Source: an uncultured Alistipes sp. (lineage in GTDB: Bacteria; Bacteroidota; Bacteroidia; Bacteroidales; Rikenellaceae). From it: a DNA stretch of 64,000 nucleotides. The notes beneath the pieces were generated by a model. That model was given only the letters and a program-made list of their open reading frames with translations, ran no database searches and had not been told where the DNA came from. Shown one piece after another: positions 6,196 through 60,655 of the stretch. Both the position numbers and the translations under genes were made by a program. The first letter of the stretch is position 1. Each line of letters opens with the position of its first letter. The DNA is taken from NCBI GenBank assembly GCA_964390585.1, contig CAYMIH010000001.1, forward strand, positions 8,432 to 72,431, given 5' to 3'.

Positions 6196-6199
6196 ATCT

Positions 6200-6297
6200 G
6201 CTGTTCGCCGACGGCGGAGGACGCATGCGAGCGTGGAGCGAGTTGCAGTCCGCCGCGTGGGGCGGCGGCGAACTGCCGACCTCGCGTCGCGAGGTCG
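6200..6297 (+). repeat. Dispersed palindromic element, subfamily A, copy A2
   Basis: GCTGTTCGCCGACGGCGGAGGACGC...GCGAGTTGCAGTCCGCCGCGTGGGGCGGCGGCGAACTGC plus hairpin CGACCTCGCG-T-CGCGAGGTCG. Confidence 0.9.
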
Positions 6298-6302
6298 AAT
6301 AC

Positions 6303-9750: not shown

Positions 9751-9780
9751 CGACGATATCGGCAGTTCGCCGACAGCGGG
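9751..9780. repeat. Fragment of subfamily A element
   Basis: CGACGATATCGGCAGTTCGCCGACAGCGG matches the A arm and a mini terminal hairpin. Confidence 0.65.
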
Positions 9781-9783
9781 CCC

Positions 9784-11001
9784 CTACTTATATATCAATG
9801 TCGACATGCGGGAGAACACCTCTTCGGCCGCCTCGACGATCCGTTCGGCCGTCACGGCCGCTACTTTCTTGTATACCTCCTCCATCGTATCGATCTCGTC
9901 GTGCACCAGAAAACTCTTTCCCGCACCGAGCATGTAGCCTTCGTTGCTCTCCATCGATATGGCCATCTGCGCCAGAAACTGACGTTTGGCCATCGACAGC
10001 TGACGCGGCGTGAGCTTCGTGCGGCGCAGGAGGGCGAGTTCGCGATCGACGAGCTCGCGGCAATGGTCGGCGTTGGAGTGTTCGGAACTGAAATATATCG
10101 CCGCCAAACCGCAATCGTTGTAGGGCGTGTATGAAGCCTCGATGTTGTACGACAATCCGTTTTTCTCGCGCAGCGACACGTTCAGACGCGAGTTGGCCGA
10201 GGGGCCGCCGAGAATGTTCACTAACAGTGCCAGCGGCAATCGCCGCTCGTCGTTGATGTCGTAGGCGCGTGCTCCCGTGACGCAGTGCACCTGATGGGTA
10301 TGCTTGTTCACCGTCTTGTCGAACGCGGACACCGCCGAAGGGGCCGTGCGTCGAAACGTGCGCGCGGTGGCGGGATATCGGGCGAAATACTTCTCGGCGA
10401 CTCCCTGCACGCTCTTTACCGACATGCTACCGATGGACGAGAAGACCATTTGGTCGGTAGTGTAGGTGCGGCCCACGAATCCGCGCACCGCTTCGGTGTC
10501 GTATCGCGCGATGGACGATTTGGTGCCGAGGATGTTGTGCCCCAGCTCCGAATCGGCGAAGATCATCTCCTCGAAGGTGTCGAATATCATGTCGGCGGGC
10601 GAATCCTTGCAGGTGTTGATCTCATCGACAATCACTTCGCGCTCTTTCGCCAACTCGCGTTCGGGAAACGCGGAATTGAAAGCCACGTCGGCGATGAGTT
10701 CCGCAGCCTTGGCGAAGTCGCCGCGCAGCGTGGTGGCGTGTATCGTGGTGTCCTCCTTGGTGGTGTAGGCGTTGAGCTCGCCGCCGAGGTTCTCCAGACG
10801 GCAATTCACCTGAAAGGCCTTGCGGCGTGCGGTGCCCTTGAATATGGCATGTTCGGTGAAGTGCGCCAGTCCGTACTGATCGGGCAGCTCGTCGCGGCAT
10901 CCCGCATTCACCACCAGCGCGCAGTGCGCTACCCCGCTCTTCACCTGACGGTGTATGCCCCTTATGCCGTTGGGCAGCGTATATGTGTAAAACTCCTTCA
11001 T
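9784..11001 (-). CDS. M16 family zinc peptidase
   Basis: Inverted zinc motif HFTEH, 'FKGT', 'GGELNAYT', 'LREKNGLSY'. Confidence 0.9.
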   Translation of the reverse strand: MKEFYTYTLPNGIRGIHRQVKSGVAHCALVVNAGCRDELPDQYGLAHFTEHAIFKGTARRKAFQVNCRLENLGGELNAYTTKEDTTIHATTLRGDFAKAAELIADVAFNSAFPERELAKEREVIVDEINTCKDSPADMIFDTFEEMIFADSELGHNILGTKSSIARYDTEAVRGFVGRTYTTDQMVFSSIGSMSVKSVQGVAEKYFARYPATARTFRRTAPSAVSAFDKTVNKHTHQVHCVTGARAYDINDERRLPLALLVNILGGPSANSRLNVSLREKNGLSYNIEASYTPYNDCGLAAIYFSSEHSNADHCRELVDRELALLRRTKLTPRQLSMAKRQFLAQMAISMESNEGYMLGAGKSFLVHDEIDTMEEVYKKVAAVTAERIVEAAEEVFSRMSTLIYK

Positions 11002-17781: not shown

Positions 17782-17872
17782 GGGGCCGCAGACTGCGGAG
17801 ACCGCAAACGGGCGAATGCAAGTTGCGGGCCTCCGCGGGGCGAGGCTGCGGCCCGCACGACTCTGACGAGTC
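17782..17872 (+). repeat. Dispersed palindromic element, subfamily B, copy B1
   Basis: ...GCGAATGCAAGTTGCGGGCCTCCGCGGGGCGAGGCTGCGGCCCGCACGACTCTGACGAGTC. Confidence 0.92.
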
Positions 17873-26237: not shown

Positions 26238-26328
26238 CGGGCGGCAGCCTGCGGAGCACGCGAACGAGCGAATGCAAGTTGCGGGCCTCCGCGGGGCAGG
26301 CTGAGGCCCGCACGACTCTGACGAGTCG
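26238..26328 (+). repeat. Dispersed palindromic element, subfamily B, copy B2
   Basis: Near-identical to B4. Confidence 0.92.
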
Positions 26329-26385: not shown

Positions 26386-27045
26386 ATGTCTATCGAGAAT
26401 AAAATAGCAGCCATCCGCCGAACCCTGCCCGCGGGTGTGGACTTGGTGGCGGTATCGAAATATCATCCTGCCGAGGCGATCCGCGAAGCCTACGACGCGG
26501 GACAGCGCATCTTCGGCGAGAACCGTCCGCAGGAGATGAAGGCCAAACACGAGATTCTGCCGCACGATATAGAGTGGCGCATGATAGGTCATTTGCAGAC
26601 CAACAAGGTGAAGTACATCGCCCCGTTCGTCGCGATGATAGAGTCGCTCGACAGCGAGCGTCTGGCAGCCGTCATAGACAAGGAGGCTGCGAAGTGCGGC
26701 CGCACGATAGATTGCCTGCTGGAGATACACGTGGCCGACGAGGATACCAAATCGGGCTGGGACTACGACGAACTGGCGGCATTCGTGCAGTCGGGAGGAT
26801 TCGGCGCATATCGCAACATCCGCATCCGCGGAGTGATGGGAATGGCCACCAACACCGACGACGAAACTGTCATCCGCCGCGACTTCATGCGTCTGGCCGA
26901 ATGCAAGCGCTCGCTCGCCGATCGGTTCGGGCCCGAGTTCGACACGTTGTCGATGGGCATGTCCGACGACTACCCCATCGCCATCGAGTGCGGCTCCACC
27001 GAGGTGCGTATCGGCTCCGATATCTTCGGGCCGCGGGAGTATTGA
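26386..27045 (+). CDS. yggS: PLP homeostasis protein YggS
   Basis: 'VAVSK', 'FGEN..QE', 'IGHLQTNKVK', 'LSMGMSDDY..AI..GST.VRIG'. Confidence 0.93.
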   Translation: MSIENKIAAIRRTLPAGVDLVAVSKYHPAEAIREAYDAGQRIFGENRPQEMKAKHEILPHDIEWRMIGHLQTNKVKYIAPFVAMIESLDSERLAAVIDKEAAKCGRTIDCLLEIHVADEDTKSGWDYDELAAFVQSGGFGAYRNIRIRGVMGMATNTDDETVIRRDFMRLAECKRSLADRFGPEFDTLSMGMSDDYPIAIECGSTEVRIGSDIFGPREY

Positions 27046-27048
27046 TAT

Positions 27049-27196
27049 CGACATTGCCCCGCAATGTCGGCAGTTCGCCGCCGCCCCACGCGGCGGACTG
27101 CTGCTCGCCCAAAGCTCGCGCACTCCGACCGCCGTCGGCGAACCGAAACGGTCTCGTCATAAAACGAGCGTTACGCCCACGCCGTCGGCGAACAGC
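27049..27196 (-). repeat. Dispersed palindromic element, subfamily A, copy A3 (plus an extra arm copy at 27180-27196)
   Basis: CAGTTCGCCGCCGCCCCACGCGGCGGACTGC is identical to A1; hairpin CGACATTGC-CCC-GCAATGTCG. Confidence 0.9.
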
Positions 27197-27268
27197 ATAC
27201 ATTAAACAAAATCCCCTTCGGCAGAACTATTCCGCGAAGGGGATCGTTGTTTCAGATAAAGCCTCGCT

Positions 27269-31234: not shown

Positions 31235-31375
31235 CAAAGATACGAATAAGCCGAGGGCAAAAGCAAATTTATTTGCGATTTTGCCGAGGCGAAGTATCTA
31301 AGGCGCAGCCAAAGATAGTAATAAGCGAGAGCAAAAGCAAACGAAGTTTGCATTTTGCCGAGCCGAAGATACGAA
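31235..31375. repeat. Tandem hairpin-forming repeat (2 units plus the start of a third) upstream of yicC
   Basis: CAAAGATA..AATAAGC(C)GAG.GCAAAAGCAAA...TTTGC..TTTTGCCGAG.CGAAG at 31235 and 31310; CGAAGATA again at 31364. Confidence 0.8.
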
Positions 31376-44327: not shown

Positions 44328-44420
44328 CGGGTAGCAGCCTGCGGAGCACGCGAACGAGCGAATGTGAGTTGCGGGCCTCCGCGGGGCGAGGCTGCGGCCC
44401 GCACGACTCTAAAAGAGTCG
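44328..44420 (+). repeat. Dispersed palindromic element, subfamily B, copy B3
   Basis: Near-identical to B4; terminal hairpin CGACTCT-AAA-AGAGTCG. Confidence 0.92.
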
Positions 44421-47928: not shown

Positions 47929-48024
47929 GCGGTTTGCCGTCGGCGGCAGGATCGCACGAGCCTCAGGCGAGTTGCGATCCGCCGCATGGGCGGCGGCGAA
48001 CCGCCGACATCGCGCGCGATGCCG
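47929..48024 (+). repeat. Dispersed palindromic element, subfamily A, copy A4 (diverged)
   Basis: Arms GCGGTTTGCCGT/GCGGCGAACCGC; core GCGAGTTGCGATCCGCCGC; hairpin CGACATCGCGCGCGATGCCG. Confidence 0.8.
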
Positions 48025-57174: not shown

Positions 57175-58668
57175 ATGAATAGAGTTTTTCGAGGTGCATC
57201 AGCCGTCGCGGTCATCGCAATCATCTGTACGGCAATGTTTTCGTCGTGCACGACCGATGAAAAATACGATTTCGCGTTCGAACTTCCCGGGCGTATCGTC
57301 ACCGAATTGAACGAAACCGTGGTGATTCCGTTCACGGCTTGCAACATCACCAGCGTATCGGTCACGTCCAAACCCGATGGATGGACGGTGGACAACGTCG
57401 ATCTGGTGAATTGGACCATCACCGTAACTTCGCCCGAATCGTACACCGAAGACGATGACAGCGTGGTCGAAAACGGCAATCTCGTCCTCACGGGCTACAC
57501 GGCCGCAGGCACCTCGGTGAAGGCCACATCCTACCTTTCGCTGCTCAATCGCGAGATAGACCTCACCGATTCATATTCCAATTGTTACGTCATATCGCAG
57601 GCCGACACCCGCTACATCATCGACGTCACCCACAAGGGCGAGTCGTCGCAGACCGTATCGCCCGCCGGCGTCGCCATTCTGTGGCAGAGCGAACGCGACC
57701 TGATCAATTTCAGCAATTTCGACGAAGCCACGGGTACATTCACCTTTTACGTGTCGCACGAAGACACCGACGACGACACCGAGGCAGCGAAAACCCCCGA
57801 CGGCAATGCCGTAGTGGCCGCTTACGACGCCGACGACAACATTCTTTGGAGCTGGCATCTGTGGGTAACGGGATCGGATCCCGAATCGAATGCCGTGGCC
57901 ACTTCGGCGGGCGTGTTCATGGACCGCAACCTCGGAGCATATCACAACAGCGACGGCTCGACCGATACCGACGACATATTCAAGTCTTACGGACTCTATT
58001 ACCAGTGGGGGCGCAAGGATCCGTTCATTAGACCCGTCGATTACAGATTTTCAAGCAACACCGACAGAACCGTTTACAGCGCCTCCAACACCGTAAAGCG
58101 TTTCGCATACGTCGATTCGGAGAAAGACGCCGAAGCGGGCAGCATAGAGTACGCCGTGGCCAACCCCATGTCGTTCGTGCTCGGATTGAAAGACAGCGGT
58201 TACGACTGGCTTTGGACAGCTCGCGACAACAGCTTGTGGAGCGACGGAGAAAAGAGCATCTACGATCCCTGTCCCCGCGGCTGGCGCGTTCCCGACGGCG
58301 ATGCTTTCTCGGCATTCGATATCGACGAGATAGAGGATGAAGCGCAATTGGCCGACATACGCGACATGTACGGATGGCATATAAAGGACAAGACGACGGG
58401 CGCCAAGCTCTTCATGCCGGGCGCAGGCCGCCGCAGTTTCGAAACGGGAGTACTCACCAACATGAACGACTACGGTTACGAAAACGTACCCATGCCTTGG
58501 ATCGGCTACTATTGGACAAGCGGAGTCGGCACGGAAGAGTTGACGACGGCAAAATCGATGTTCTTCGATCTCAATACCACCCGAGCCGTGAACAACCGCT
58601 ACGACGCAGCCAAGGAGATGTACCGCGCCAACGGCATGCAGATTCGCTGCGTGAGAGACGACCGATAG
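57175..58668 (+). CDS. Surface lipoprotein with Fib_succ_major/fimbrillin-tip-like C-terminal domain
   Basis: Lipobox 'FSSC'; 'WSWHLW', 'MDRNLGA', 'YYQWGRKDPF', 'DPCPRGWRVP', 'GYYWTS', 'G.QIRCVRD'. Confidence 0.7.
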   Translation: MNRVFRGASAVAVIAIICTAMFSSCTTDEKYDFAFELPGRIVTELNETVVIPFTACNITSVSVTSKPDGWTVDNVDLVNWTITVTSPESYTEDDDSVVENGNLVLTGYTAAGTSVKATSYLSLLNREIDLTDSYSNCYVISQADTRYIIDVTHKGESSQTVSPAGVAILWQSERDLINFSNFDEATGTFTFYVSHEDTDDDTEAAKTPDGNAVVAAYDADDNILWSWHLWVTGSDPESNAVATSAGVFMDRNLGAYHNSDGSTDTDDIFKSYGLYYQWGRKDPFIRPVDYRFSSNTDRTVYSASNTVKRFAYVDSEKDAEAGSIEYAVANPMSFVLGLKDSGYDWLWTARDNSLWSDGEKSIYDPCPRGWRVPDGDAFSAFDIDEIEDEAQLADIRDMYGWHIKDKTTGAKLFMPGAGRRSFETGVLTNMNDYGYENVPMPWIGYYWTSGVGTEELTTAKSMFFDLNTTRAVNNRYDAAKEMYRANGMQIRCVRDDR

Positions 58669-58689
58669 AGGCCGCAACAAAAAATTCGG

Positions 58690-58719
58690 AACAGCCCGAC
58701 CTTGCGGTCGGGCTGTTTT
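58690..58719 (+). terminator. Terminator after the surface lipoprotein
   Basis: AACAGCCCGACC/GGTCGGGCTGTT plus TT. Confidence 0.7.
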
Positions 58720-58733
58720 GCGATAATACGGCT

Positions 58734-58825
58734 CGGGCGGCAGCCTGCGGAGCGCGCGAACGAGCGAATGCAAGTTGCGGGCCTCCGCGGGGCGAGGCTG
58801 CGGCCCGCACGACTCTGACGAGTCG
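58734..58825 (+). repeat. Dispersed palindromic element, subfamily B, copy B4
   Basis: CGGGCGGCAGCCTGCGGAGCGCGCGAACGAGCGAATGCAAGTTGCGGGCCTCCGCGGGGCGAGGCTGCGGCCCGCACGACTCTGACGAGTCG. Confidence 0.92.
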
Positions 58826-58857
58826 CGACAGAATTTCTCCGTTCGAGTTTTTTTGTC

Positions 58858-58865
58858 TATTTTTG
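58858..58865 (+). promoter_or_regulatory. -7 box for engB
   Basis: TATTTTTG. Confidence 0.58.
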
Positions 58866-58905
58866 CGGCACTAACAAGCCGTTCGAGGCATAATCCTTCC
58901 AAGCG

Positions 58906-59493
58906 ATGAAAATCAACAAAGCCGAATTCAAGTGCAGTTCGGAGAGAATCTCGCAAGTCCCGAAAGACGATCTTCGCGACATAGCGTTCATCGGGCGCAG
59001 CAATGTCGGCAAATCGTCGCTCATCAACATGCTCACGGGGCGCAAGGCGCTGGCCAAAGTGTCGTCCACCCCGGGCAAGACCCGCCTTATAAACCACTTC
59101 CGCATAAACGACTCGTGGTATCTGGTCGACCTCCCGGGATACGGCTACGCCCGCGTGTCGAAAAGCATACGCGGCGAGTTCTCGAAGATCATCCTCGATT
59201 ACGTGCTCAAGTGCGAGAAGATGCACTTTCTGTTCGTTCTGGTCGATTCGCGGCTCGAACCGCAAGCCATCGACATGCGTTTCATCGAGATGCTGGGCGA
59301 GAACGGCATTCCGTTCGGCATCATATTCACCAAGAGCGACAAGCTCTCGGCCGCACAGCTCAAAAAGAGCGTCGAACGCTACCGCACCGCCCTCGCGGAG
59401 CAGTGGGAGGAGTTGCCGCCCATGTTCGTCTCGTCGAGCGCACGCGGCACGGGGCACGACGAAATACTCGACCATATCGAAAAATGTTTATAA
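58906..59493 (+). CDS. engB: Ribosome biogenesis GTPase YihA/YsxC
   Basis: 'GRSNVGKSSLIN', 'PGKT', 'DLPGYGYA', 'TKSD'. Confidence 0.94.
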   Translation: MKINKAEFKCSSERISQVPKDDLRDIAFIGRSNVGKSSLINMLTGRKALAKVSSTPGKTRLINHFRINDSWYLVDLPGYGYARVSKSIRGEFSKIILDYVLKCEKMHFLFVLVDSRLEPQAIDMRFIEMLGENGIPFGIIFTKSDKLSAAQLKKSVERYRTALAEQWEELPPMFVSSSARGTGHDEILDHIEKCL

Positions 59494-60538: not shown

Positions 60539-60572
60539 AGGCTGCCTCGCGAAAGGCAGCCTTTGTTGTTTT
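60539..60572 (+). terminator. Terminator after prs
   Basis: AGGCTGCCT/AGGCAGCCT plus T-rich tail. Confidence 0.65.
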
Positions 60573-60655
60573 GCGGTTCGCCGACAGCGGAGGATTGCGA
60601 CAGCAGTCCGCCGCGCGGGGTGGCGGCGAACTGCCGACATTGCAATGCAATGTCG
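60573..60655 (+). repeat. Dispersed palindromic element, subfamily A, copy A5 (internally shortened)
   Basis: GCGGTTCGCCGACAGCGGAGG...GCAGTCCGCCGCGCGGGGTGGCGGCGAACTGC plus CGACATTGCA-A-TGCAATGTCG. Confidence 0.88.

Follow-up and report, generated by a model that had tools for sequence, protein, structure and literature searches.

IS200/IS605 ends and the PATEs, as well as IS91 and Helitron elements, have a 3′ subterminal hairpin a few nucleotides from the end, two ends that are unlike each other, and no target-site duplication. PATEs are further marked by the lack of terminal inverted repeats, by insertion 3′ of a fixed short target and by strong lagging-strand polarity. In REPIN–RAYT systems, two inverted REPs form one long hairpin, and the genome has a Y1 (RAYT) transposase gene, usually with the repeats on either side of it. 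Integron attC sites are structure-defined, sequence-variable imperfect palindromes with conserved unpaired bases, and recombination at a fixed point in them yields hybrid sites. The REP superfamilies are recognized by a GTAG or CGTC tag that stays unpaired on one side of the palindrome; the CGTC families also have a short CCA-like tail, and REPs of the CGTC type occur without a dedicated transposase (PMC3733652). Template switching between the arms of an inverted repeat makes the arms equal and inverts the spacer (PMC8604942, PMC8794818, PMC7202029), and spacer inversion is a known signature of this process (PMC8604942, PMC8794818).

We analysed a stretch of 64 000 nucleotides of Alistipes DNA (hereafter ‘the window’) together with its source assembly (G000: 2.24 Mb in 104 contigs, 58% G+C, 90% complete). 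The repeats found here have two related cores of about 80 nt, A (GTTCGCCGACGGCGG...GTCCGCCGC-NN-GGGG-N-GGCGGCGAACTGC) and B (GGGCGGCAGCCTGCGGAG...CCTCCGCGGGGCGAGGCTGCGGCCCGCR). Both are predicted to fold as a long rod, in which a G-rich stretch of the 3′ side is conserved and unpaired, and both are followed by a separate short hairpin (Table 1). With nhmmer profiles built from the cores only, leaving out the hairpin, 362 core copies were detected in the 2.24 Mb genome at the confident cut-off of E < 1e-3 (180 A and 182 B). Of the 339 copies that reach the 3′ end and have a readable flank, 304 (90%) carry there a palindrome whose arms match perfectly over 6 nt or more and which begins between −4 and +3 nt of the core end, compared with 138 of 5000 random positions (2.8%). 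The self-complementary hairpin that an earlier sequence-only reading had noticed 3′ of each copy in the window is thus found genome-wide, and the finding that would have spoken against that reading, a palindrome missing from most genomic copies, was not obtained. All palindromes it had listed were found in place, including that of A copy 4 with its single A.C mismatch. When one internal mismatch was allowed, 299 hairpins could be parsed, of which 274 (92%) have perfect stems.

Single units are accompanied by mosaic arrays, in which a B core, a hairpin, a ATTTTTCGGTTTTTGG spacer, an A core and a further hairpin are combined with several recurring downstream modules. No Rfam family corresponds to the element: only tmRNA scored above threshold in the window, and nothing relevant appeared between 26150 and 27300 with E-values up to 5. 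We found no description of this Alistipes repeat in the literature. It is apparently an undescribed, abundant REP/BIME-like non-coding family of gut Alistipes, and the repeats account for about 1.5–2% of the DNA in small-genome members of this group. As many copies sit at contig ends, the repeats break short-read assemblies. The window also holds a second, AT-rich tandem hairpin unit (31235-31363), of which dozens of copies with 80–91% identity occur in another Alistipes genome, G091, often as overlapping tandem arrays with a period of 75 nt; this second repeat family is common to both species.

Table 1. Repeat copies in the window and related features of other Alistipes genomes. Coordinates are window positions unless a genome and contig are named; cores, hairpins and tails of A copy 3 are given separately.
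Feature	Coordinates	Strand	Description
A copy 1	2398-2498	−	core 2421-2498; hairpin 2398-2420, stem GATATCGC, loop CAT (element strand)
A copy 2	6198-6302	+	core 6198-6276; hairpin 6277-6297, stem GACCTCGC, loop GTC; tail AATAC
A copy 3, A/T-rich tail	27043-27048	−	ATATCA on element strand, 3′ of hairpin
A copy 3, terminal hairpin	27049-27069	−	CGACATTGC/CCC (GGG on element strand)/GCAATGTCG; perfect 9-bp arms, 3-nt loop; type I stem allele GACATTGC
A copy 3, core	27070-27148	−	nhmmer 69 bits; predicted fold; cross-species covariation of outer stem
Extra partial A 5′ arm and module	27149-27200	−	GCTGTTCGCCGACGGCG arm plus GGCGTAACGC..TTTATGA module, upstream of copy 3
A copy 4	47929-48024	+	core 47929-48003; hairpin 48005-48024, one A.C mismatch
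A copy 5	60571-60655	+	core 60571-60634, short, without apical part; hairpin 60635-60655, stem GACATTGC, loop AAT
B copy 1	17784-17872	+	core 17784-17857; type II hairpin CGACTC-TGAC-GAGTC from 17858
B copy 2	26240-26328	+	core 26240-26312; hairpin CGACTC-TGAC-GAGTCG from 26313
B copy 3	44330-44420	+	core 44330-44403; hairpin CGACTCT-AAA-AGAGTCG from 44404
B copy 4	58736-58825	+	core 58736-58809; hairpin CGACTC-TGAC-GAGTCG from 58810
Degenerate remnant	9752-9785	−	truncated A arm ending GGCGAACTGC, then collapsed type I palindrome CGATATCG, then A-run
Shared B-like spacer, window	58640-58930
Shared B-like spacer, G091 (L236)	G091:C9:94560-94900
Shared B-like spacer, G128 (L237)	G128:C108:4180-4520
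G091 terminal palindrome			CGCGCT... or CGCAC-ATGC-GTGCG
G128 terminal palindrome			CGATCCC-TAAC-GGGATCG
G043 terminal palindrome			CGCCGCT-NNN-AGCGGCG
G009 terminal palindrome			GCGATCC-AGC-GGATCGC

All nine copies in the window lie between called genes, copy A4 being inside an over-extended ORF of the crude gene calls. The core of A copy 3 is predicted to form a long imperfect rod with the outer stem GTTCGCCG/CGGCGAAC and the conserved unpaired GTGGGGC on its 3′ side. Its hairpin starts 4 nt past the TGA stop codon (27043-27045) of a YggS-like gene (26386-27045), and its tail overlaps this codon, so that the element ends within the last codon of a housekeeping gene. The mosaic junction on the other side of the core recurs in three genomic copies. 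The degenerate remnant looks like the product of a deletion of the palindrome centre. A tmRNA gene (1948-2350; Rfam RF00023 with 139.6 bits) is situated upstream of the A copy 1 hairpin, at a distance of 48 nt.

The hairpin belongs to one side of the repeat. Although the core arms are inverted repeats, a hairpin with arms of at least 5 nt follows 138 of 159 3′-arm ends and only 4 of 168 5′-arm ends. In 75 copies with a type I hairpin (see below), conservation extends from GC(T)GTTCGCC across the hairpin and into a tail with the consensus A-W-A-T-A (first A in 67, second A in 56 and third A in 46 of the 75 copies); since this tail is conserved beyond the hairpin, the hairpin is subterminal. No target-site duplication was detected, as duplications of 3–6 nt were not above chance level at any offset, and no conserved target tetranucleotide was seen in the flanks. 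A search for longer units running from an A 5′ arm to an A 3′ arm returned none, partial matches being mostly at contig ends. Recurrent stems are located at a core end (ATATCGC in 21 of 22 and ACATCGC in 15 of 15 occurrences), and most seeming orphan hairpins adjoin a core which the profile search had missed.

Sites without the element were compared within the genome and between species. The B core with hairpin GCAGTCC-TGC-GGACTGC at C20:26276 represents a single indel relative to the array versions at C10:31902-32014 and C58:9120-9232, which contain neither hairpin arm; similar further cases were found in arrays. In relatives with 76–81% coding identity, the spacers after udk and after prs and the A4 site are without core and without hairpin, the A4 element and its hairpin both being missing from the matching spacer of G091 and G128. 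The spacer after yggS has neither core nor hairpin in more distant relatives; a scan of metagenomes and genomes with the YggS-like protein found nothing closer than 73% amino acid identity. The matching spacers of relatives hold ordinary terminators or shorter DNA. A possible half-hairpin at one ‘empty’ array site (C12 versus C35) was dropped from the comparison, as many different sequences precede the downstream module; a deletion derivative or a chance match is the better reading. In the sequence-only reading, the palindrome was proposed either to be made at insertion, which would leave one arm in the empty allele, or to be a pre-existing hairpin beside which the element inserts, which would leave both. 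Neither arm was present in the array sites or in the spacers of relatives. Taken together, the small inherited set of stem alleles (24 copies share GATATCGC), the occurrence of type I only behind A, the conserved tail, the practical absence of free hairpins and the armless empty sites argue that the hairpin is neither a target nor built from the flank. On these sequence comparisons, it is inherited with the repeat and not built from neighbouring DNA at insertion, for type I by indirect evidence.

Two types of hairpin were distinguished. Type I consists of C-GAYMTNGC, a 3-nt loop and the complement, and occurs solely behind A cores ending in ...ACTGC. The most frequent alleles are GATATCGC (24 copies), GACATCGC (15), GACATTGC (13), GACCTCGC (9) and GACATGGC (8), in addition to rare ones. 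Six of the nine stem positions are invariant, and the stem pairs covary nearly perfectly, each change being mirrored in the other arm (mutual information 0.81 of 0.90, 0.51 of 0.51 and 1.21 of 1.3 bits, and thus close to the entropy of the columns). All but two of 79 5′ arms are either CGACATCGC or exactly one compensated base-pair step away from it; stems with two or more differences were found in 2 copies, compared with 15.3 expected if the positions were independent (0 of 5000 shuffles). Type I loops are near random, with 41 different sequences in 75 copies and identical-loop pairs at 2–9% within a stem class, where chance would give 1.6%. Type II hairpins have stems of 6–7 bp with five main alleles (CGACTC, CGGCTC, CGGTTC, CAGTCC and CAGTTC) and loops of 3–4 nt. 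They are found behind both A and B cores, except for the CAGTCC and CAGTTC stems, which are restricted to B. Their loops are limited to few sequences (TGC in 29 of 35 CAGTCC hairpins; elsewhere TGAC, TGAA and TAAA), and stem and loop are both kept across 10–29 copies. These loops are also strand-polar and YRAM-like (TGAC, TGAA, TAAA, CGAA, TGC), reverse complements being almost unseen. This polarity hints at a strand-specific reading, possibly of RNA, and the difference to the random type I loops may hint that the two hairpin types are read differently.

The statement of the sequence-only reading that each copy has a different palindrome therefore holds for the handful in the window and for type I loops, but not for the stems, of which there are few alleles, nor for type II loops. 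What had appeared as arms separated by 0–1 nt are 9-bp stems with 3-nt loops whose outer bases pair by chance. Simple point-mutation descent from one ancestor, which had been put forward as the contrary case, does hold for the stem variants: 77 of 79 type I stems lie within one compensated step of CGACATCGC, and single-arm intermediates between common alleles exist.

Stems with a single mismatch (25 of 299) comprise 13 with A.C, eight with G.T and four with other pairs. Several of these are hybrids of two common alleles (e.g. GCGACTC...GAGCCGC), indicating that change goes stepwise. The numbers of A.C and G.T mismatches reveal no RNA-type wobble preference on either strand, which favours a hairpin at the DNA level. 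Saturated loops next to 92% perfect stems with six of nine invariant positions indicate that purifying selection preserves the pairing and also some of the sequence; this requires that selection acts in place or via birth-and-death turnover, as the youth of the copies is no explanation. A dimeric protein bound to duplex DNA would need no compensation, so that intrastrand pairing appears to matter.

A mechanical contribution to the symmetry is suggested by the loops. Pairs of reverse-complementary loops exceed the expectation (57 versus 40.2, sd 5.7; 0.2% of shuffles reach 57). Further, the paralogous segments C19:192-472 and C76:7590-7885, which are 87% identical overall, share the same A copy. 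It has two differences in about 85 core positions, compared with a divergence of about 10–13% in the flanks; the stems are identical while the loops, GCA and TGC, represent an exact inversion of the spacer. The earlier proposal that the palindromes are homogenized mechanistically is thereby supported in part. Covariation, the balance of A.C and G.T and the excess of reverse-complementary loops point to a DNA-level hairpin kept by selection, and template switching within the palindrome probably contributes to its symmetry.

Hairpin and core are nearly unlinked. Mutual information between hairpin allele and core haplotype is at most 0.16 bit, compared with 0.57 bit between core columns 88 nt apart, and cores with 95–100% identity carry different stems and loops (CGACATTGC-ACA at C49:1252, CGATATCGC-TAT at C2:94100). 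Plain co-inheritance or simple descent is therefore not enough, and either very constrained cores or exchange at the junction is needed. The cores may be strongly constrained, which is consistent with the C19/C76 pair; there may be exchange or re-synthesis at the core/hairpin junction; or short conversion tracts may begin at the palindrome.

To find the repeat elsewhere, 121 genomes of the genus were sampled. The A-core pattern was detected in six: G000 (95 matches), G091 (52), G128 (12), G043 (12, a variant form), G009 (9) and G046 (1). The same architecture with other palindromes is present in four to five further Alistipes species, in which the core 3′ arm is nearly constant. The core outer stem shows compensatory changes across species; this applies to the outer stem, as the cross-species MAFFT alignment left the variable hairpins out of register. 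The spacer just upstream of the window gene 58906-59493 contains a B-like element in G000, G091 and G128. The hairpins of these elements are CGACTC-TGAC, CGATCCC-TCGC and CGACTGC-ACA, and the element of G128 has the opposite orientation. Three hairpins in two orientations at one spacer suggest turnover at hot spots, and the spacer looks like an insertion hot spot or a place of in-place turnover. Replication-strand polarity of the repeats in G000, judged by GC skew, is 58–65% and not significant. On the G091 contigs C1, C7, C8 and C10, the A copies of a contig seem to share one orientation, possibly switching on C1 between 164 and 262 kb, which suggests replication polarity there. Other simple repeats lie beside elements in relatives (loci L033-L039 of G128, L134, L217 and L222): GAATTTT-type heptamer arrays in G128 and in Rikenellaceae SIG177, and a tandem array of the 13-nt sequence GGGACCGGAGAGA after udk in G046.

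None of the mobilizing enzymes searched for was seen to track the elements. The Y1/RAYT family (PF01797) had no match in G000, G091, G043, G128, G009 or G046, while controls matched in six of 14 genomes; two of these six Y1-negative, element-bearing genomes are 94% and 99% complete, G000 being 90% complete. A Y2 search yielded no match, the controls being equally silent. The IS110 DEDD transposase (PF01548) was found in G043 and G009 only, with none in G000, G091 and G128. The latter three also have no reverse transcriptase (PF00078), although 43 of 121 genus genomes have one. Presence of Y1, IS110 or reverse transcriptase thus does not follow that of the repeat. The sole match to PF07282 (TnpB-like) was rejected, as it is a Cas12f-like protein beside a CRISPR array. 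Situated near a contig end, this miniature type V-like locus (G000 C45:15454-17620, outside the window) consists of a 498-aa Cas12f/TnpB-like ORF followed by an array with at least seven repeats GTTGCAAACGGCTTGCTTTTGGGATGAATATCCAAC and spacers of about 30 nt. REPtron-like genes between inverted copies were also rejected: ten such genes are housekeeping genes (TsaE, Dus, a LysR regulator, an aminoacyl-tRNA synthetase and others).

We consider it rather probable that the palindrome belongs to the repeat itself, as a 3′ subterminal hairpin that forms the final module of a REP/BIME-like element, is read as a DNA structure and is kept symmetrical by selection together with template switching. The unit would be ordered as core rod, hairpin and short A/T tail, and gains or losses of a unit would involve hairpin and core together. 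The conserved feature would be a G+C-clamped stem of 6–10 bp that starts with CG and ends with CG and encloses a small loop. Type I would keep in addition the frame C-G-A-y-m-T-n-G-C, with three stem pairs changing singly by compensated substitution and the loop free to vary. On either strand, the palindrome probably acts through intrastrand pairing of the DNA, as a hairpin or cruciform, rather than in RNA, and some factor would read the structure and part of the sequence to copy or maintain the element. Purifying selection on pairing would hold the symmetry, while template switching at replication within the palindrome would copy one arm onto the other and flip the loop.

Other explanations have to be weighed against this one. 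That cores insert beside pre-existing REP-like hairpins as preferred targets is disfavoured already and must be regarded as highly improbable. It would fit the almost independent assortment of hairpin alleles and core haplotypes, the identical type II alleles behind A and B cores, and the array hairpin CGRCTC-CAAA, which is linked to its downstream module behind either type of core; yet hardly any hairpin occurs on its own, neither the empty sites nor the corresponding spacers of relatives contain one, and type I stems occur only behind A as CAGTCC and CAGTTC occur only behind B. Uncoupling would also fit a site-specific recombinase which, in the manner of integron attC, would swap modules at the core/hairpin junction and so create hybrid units and arrays. 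Linkage breaks sharply there (a column 17 nt away has a mutual information of 0.13, compared with the 0.57 of the distant core columns), the array indel C51:1024 versus C7 can be read as hairpin, spacer and core placed between a core and its hairpin, target-site duplications are missing, and the unpaired GGGG bulge of the core recalls extrahelical bases. However, solo units in unique DNA run from core to hairpin and not from hairpin to core, swaps between dispersed chromosomal copies would rearrange the genome, the array cases allow other parses, and no candidate recombinase is linked to the repeats, the genes flanked by inverted copies being housekeeping genes. We regard this mechanism as very unlikely. 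A hairpin of which one arm or none is transmitted, the second being rebuilt at each copying by snap-back or template-switch synthesis, would explain why stems are 92% perfect, why hairpin and core have separate genealogies even where the cores are identical, why type I loops are near random and why a loop inversion and an excess of reverse-complementary loops are seen. Such rebuilding is improbable with stems that form a small discrete set around CGACATCGC, with the same stem and loop recurring on unlike cores (CGACCTCGC-GTC, three to four copies), with type II stems and loops that are kept over many copies and with single-arm intermediates of common alleles in 25 of 299 copies. Moreover, neither a polymerase nor a reverse transcriptase nor an HUH enzyme was detected (for Y2 with silent controls), and the C19/C76 loop flip occurred in place between paralogous segments, not at insertion.

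The hairpin might instead act in RNA, being co-transcribed with the upstream gene and protecting the 3′ end or terminating transcription, as in E. coli REP. The copies are intergenic, and A copies lie between convergent genes in 34 of 130 cases (26%), compared with 17% of all spacers; their orientation leans to the upstream gene (80:50 for A and 65:51 for B, from crude gene calls). Several window copies follow a gene end or terminator, and the polar loops of type II would suit a reading in RNA. On the other hand, the orientation bias is weak, no U-run follows the hairpin, G.U is not preferred on the element strand (eight G.T against 13 A.C), copy 4 lies in a divergent promoter spacer and Rfam has no match. 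Docking behind terminators as a rule was rejected too, as an upstream terminator-like hairpin precedes 8 of 75 type I copies, compared with 3.7% of random intergenic positions. An action in RNA is therefore judged unlikely. The same low probability is assigned to the idea that the terminal hairpin is a self-templated, fast-rewritten module, which a copying or repair process that starts or stalls there would re-synthesize by template switching within or between copies. If true, each unit would keep a palindrome that is perfect but reshuffled and uncoupled from the core, and this would point to a hairpin-primed spread without the known transposase families.

The genomes richest in the element yielded none of Y1/RAYT, IS110 and reverse transcriptase. 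Under the preferred reading of a structure-read DNA hairpin, the working of these repeats is best approached through the end hairpin. It is obligatory, one-sided, selected for structure and evolves apart from the core. Core-plus-hairpin oligonucleotides, with variants in which pairing is broken and restored, would be reagents for finding the reading factor. The approximately 300 palindromes are a natural data set for compensatory evolution versus template-switch repair in a bacterium, and the repeats mark hot spots of spacer turnover between species.

Compared with known systems, the unit resembles a classical DDE-type MITE in its inverted outer arms, but has no target-site duplication and extends past the 3′ arm. 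A SINE-like retroelement repeat does not fit with G000, G091 and G128 being without reverse transcriptase, nor does an IS110/bridge-RNA element fit with these genomes being without DEDD transposase. Like attC, the element is defined by structure, variable in sequence and has conserved unpaired bases, and hybrid sites would explain the uncoupling of core and hairpin; however, cassette arrays and an R-box consensus are missing (GTTCGCC misfits GTTRRRY), and copies are found between housekeeping genes. Subterminal hairpin, unlike ends, missing target-site duplication and conservation of structure over sequence recall IS200/IS605 and PATEs, IS91 and Helitron, whereas here no Y1 TnpA and no conserved target tetranucleotide were found and strand polarity is not significant. 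Template-switch mutagenesis (PMC8604942, PMC8794818, PMC7202029) predicts both arm homogenization and spacer inversion, and both are seen here. It is a general mutational process and not an element family, and alone it would randomize all stem positions, which is not observed.

Like the REP/BIME sequences of Enterobacteria and Pseudomonas (PMC3733652), the repeat is present in hundreds of copies outside genes, has a short G+C-rich palindrome whose stems and loops vary within the family, forms mosaic clusters together with further conserved motifs, and combines a conserved design with a species-specific sequence. It differs in that the palindrome is the end module of a structured core of about 80 nt and not the whole unit, in that head-to-head dimers are not the rule, and in its host, which belongs to the Bacteroidota. 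An unpaired GTAG or CGTC tag is missing: stems begin with paired CGAC, CGAT, GCG or GCA, and CGTC, which only 2 of the 79 type I copies have, is paired as well, the tail being A-W-A-T-A and not that of CGTC REPs. REPIN–RAYT systems (PMC3116915, PMC3337134) are similar in the lack of target-site duplications, in populations of almost identical copies around a master sequence and its one-step variants, in vertical persistence and in lineage-specific sequence. The core rod recalls their long hairpin in being built of inverted arms, but these arms are not free-standing REPs, and a third, variable hairpin with a tail on one side makes the unit asymmetric. Unlike there, no Y1/RAYT gene was found in the six element-bearing genomes. 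With neither a GTAG/CGTC tag nor a RAYT, the element nevertheless is most like REP/BIME mosaics and REPINs in the way it works.
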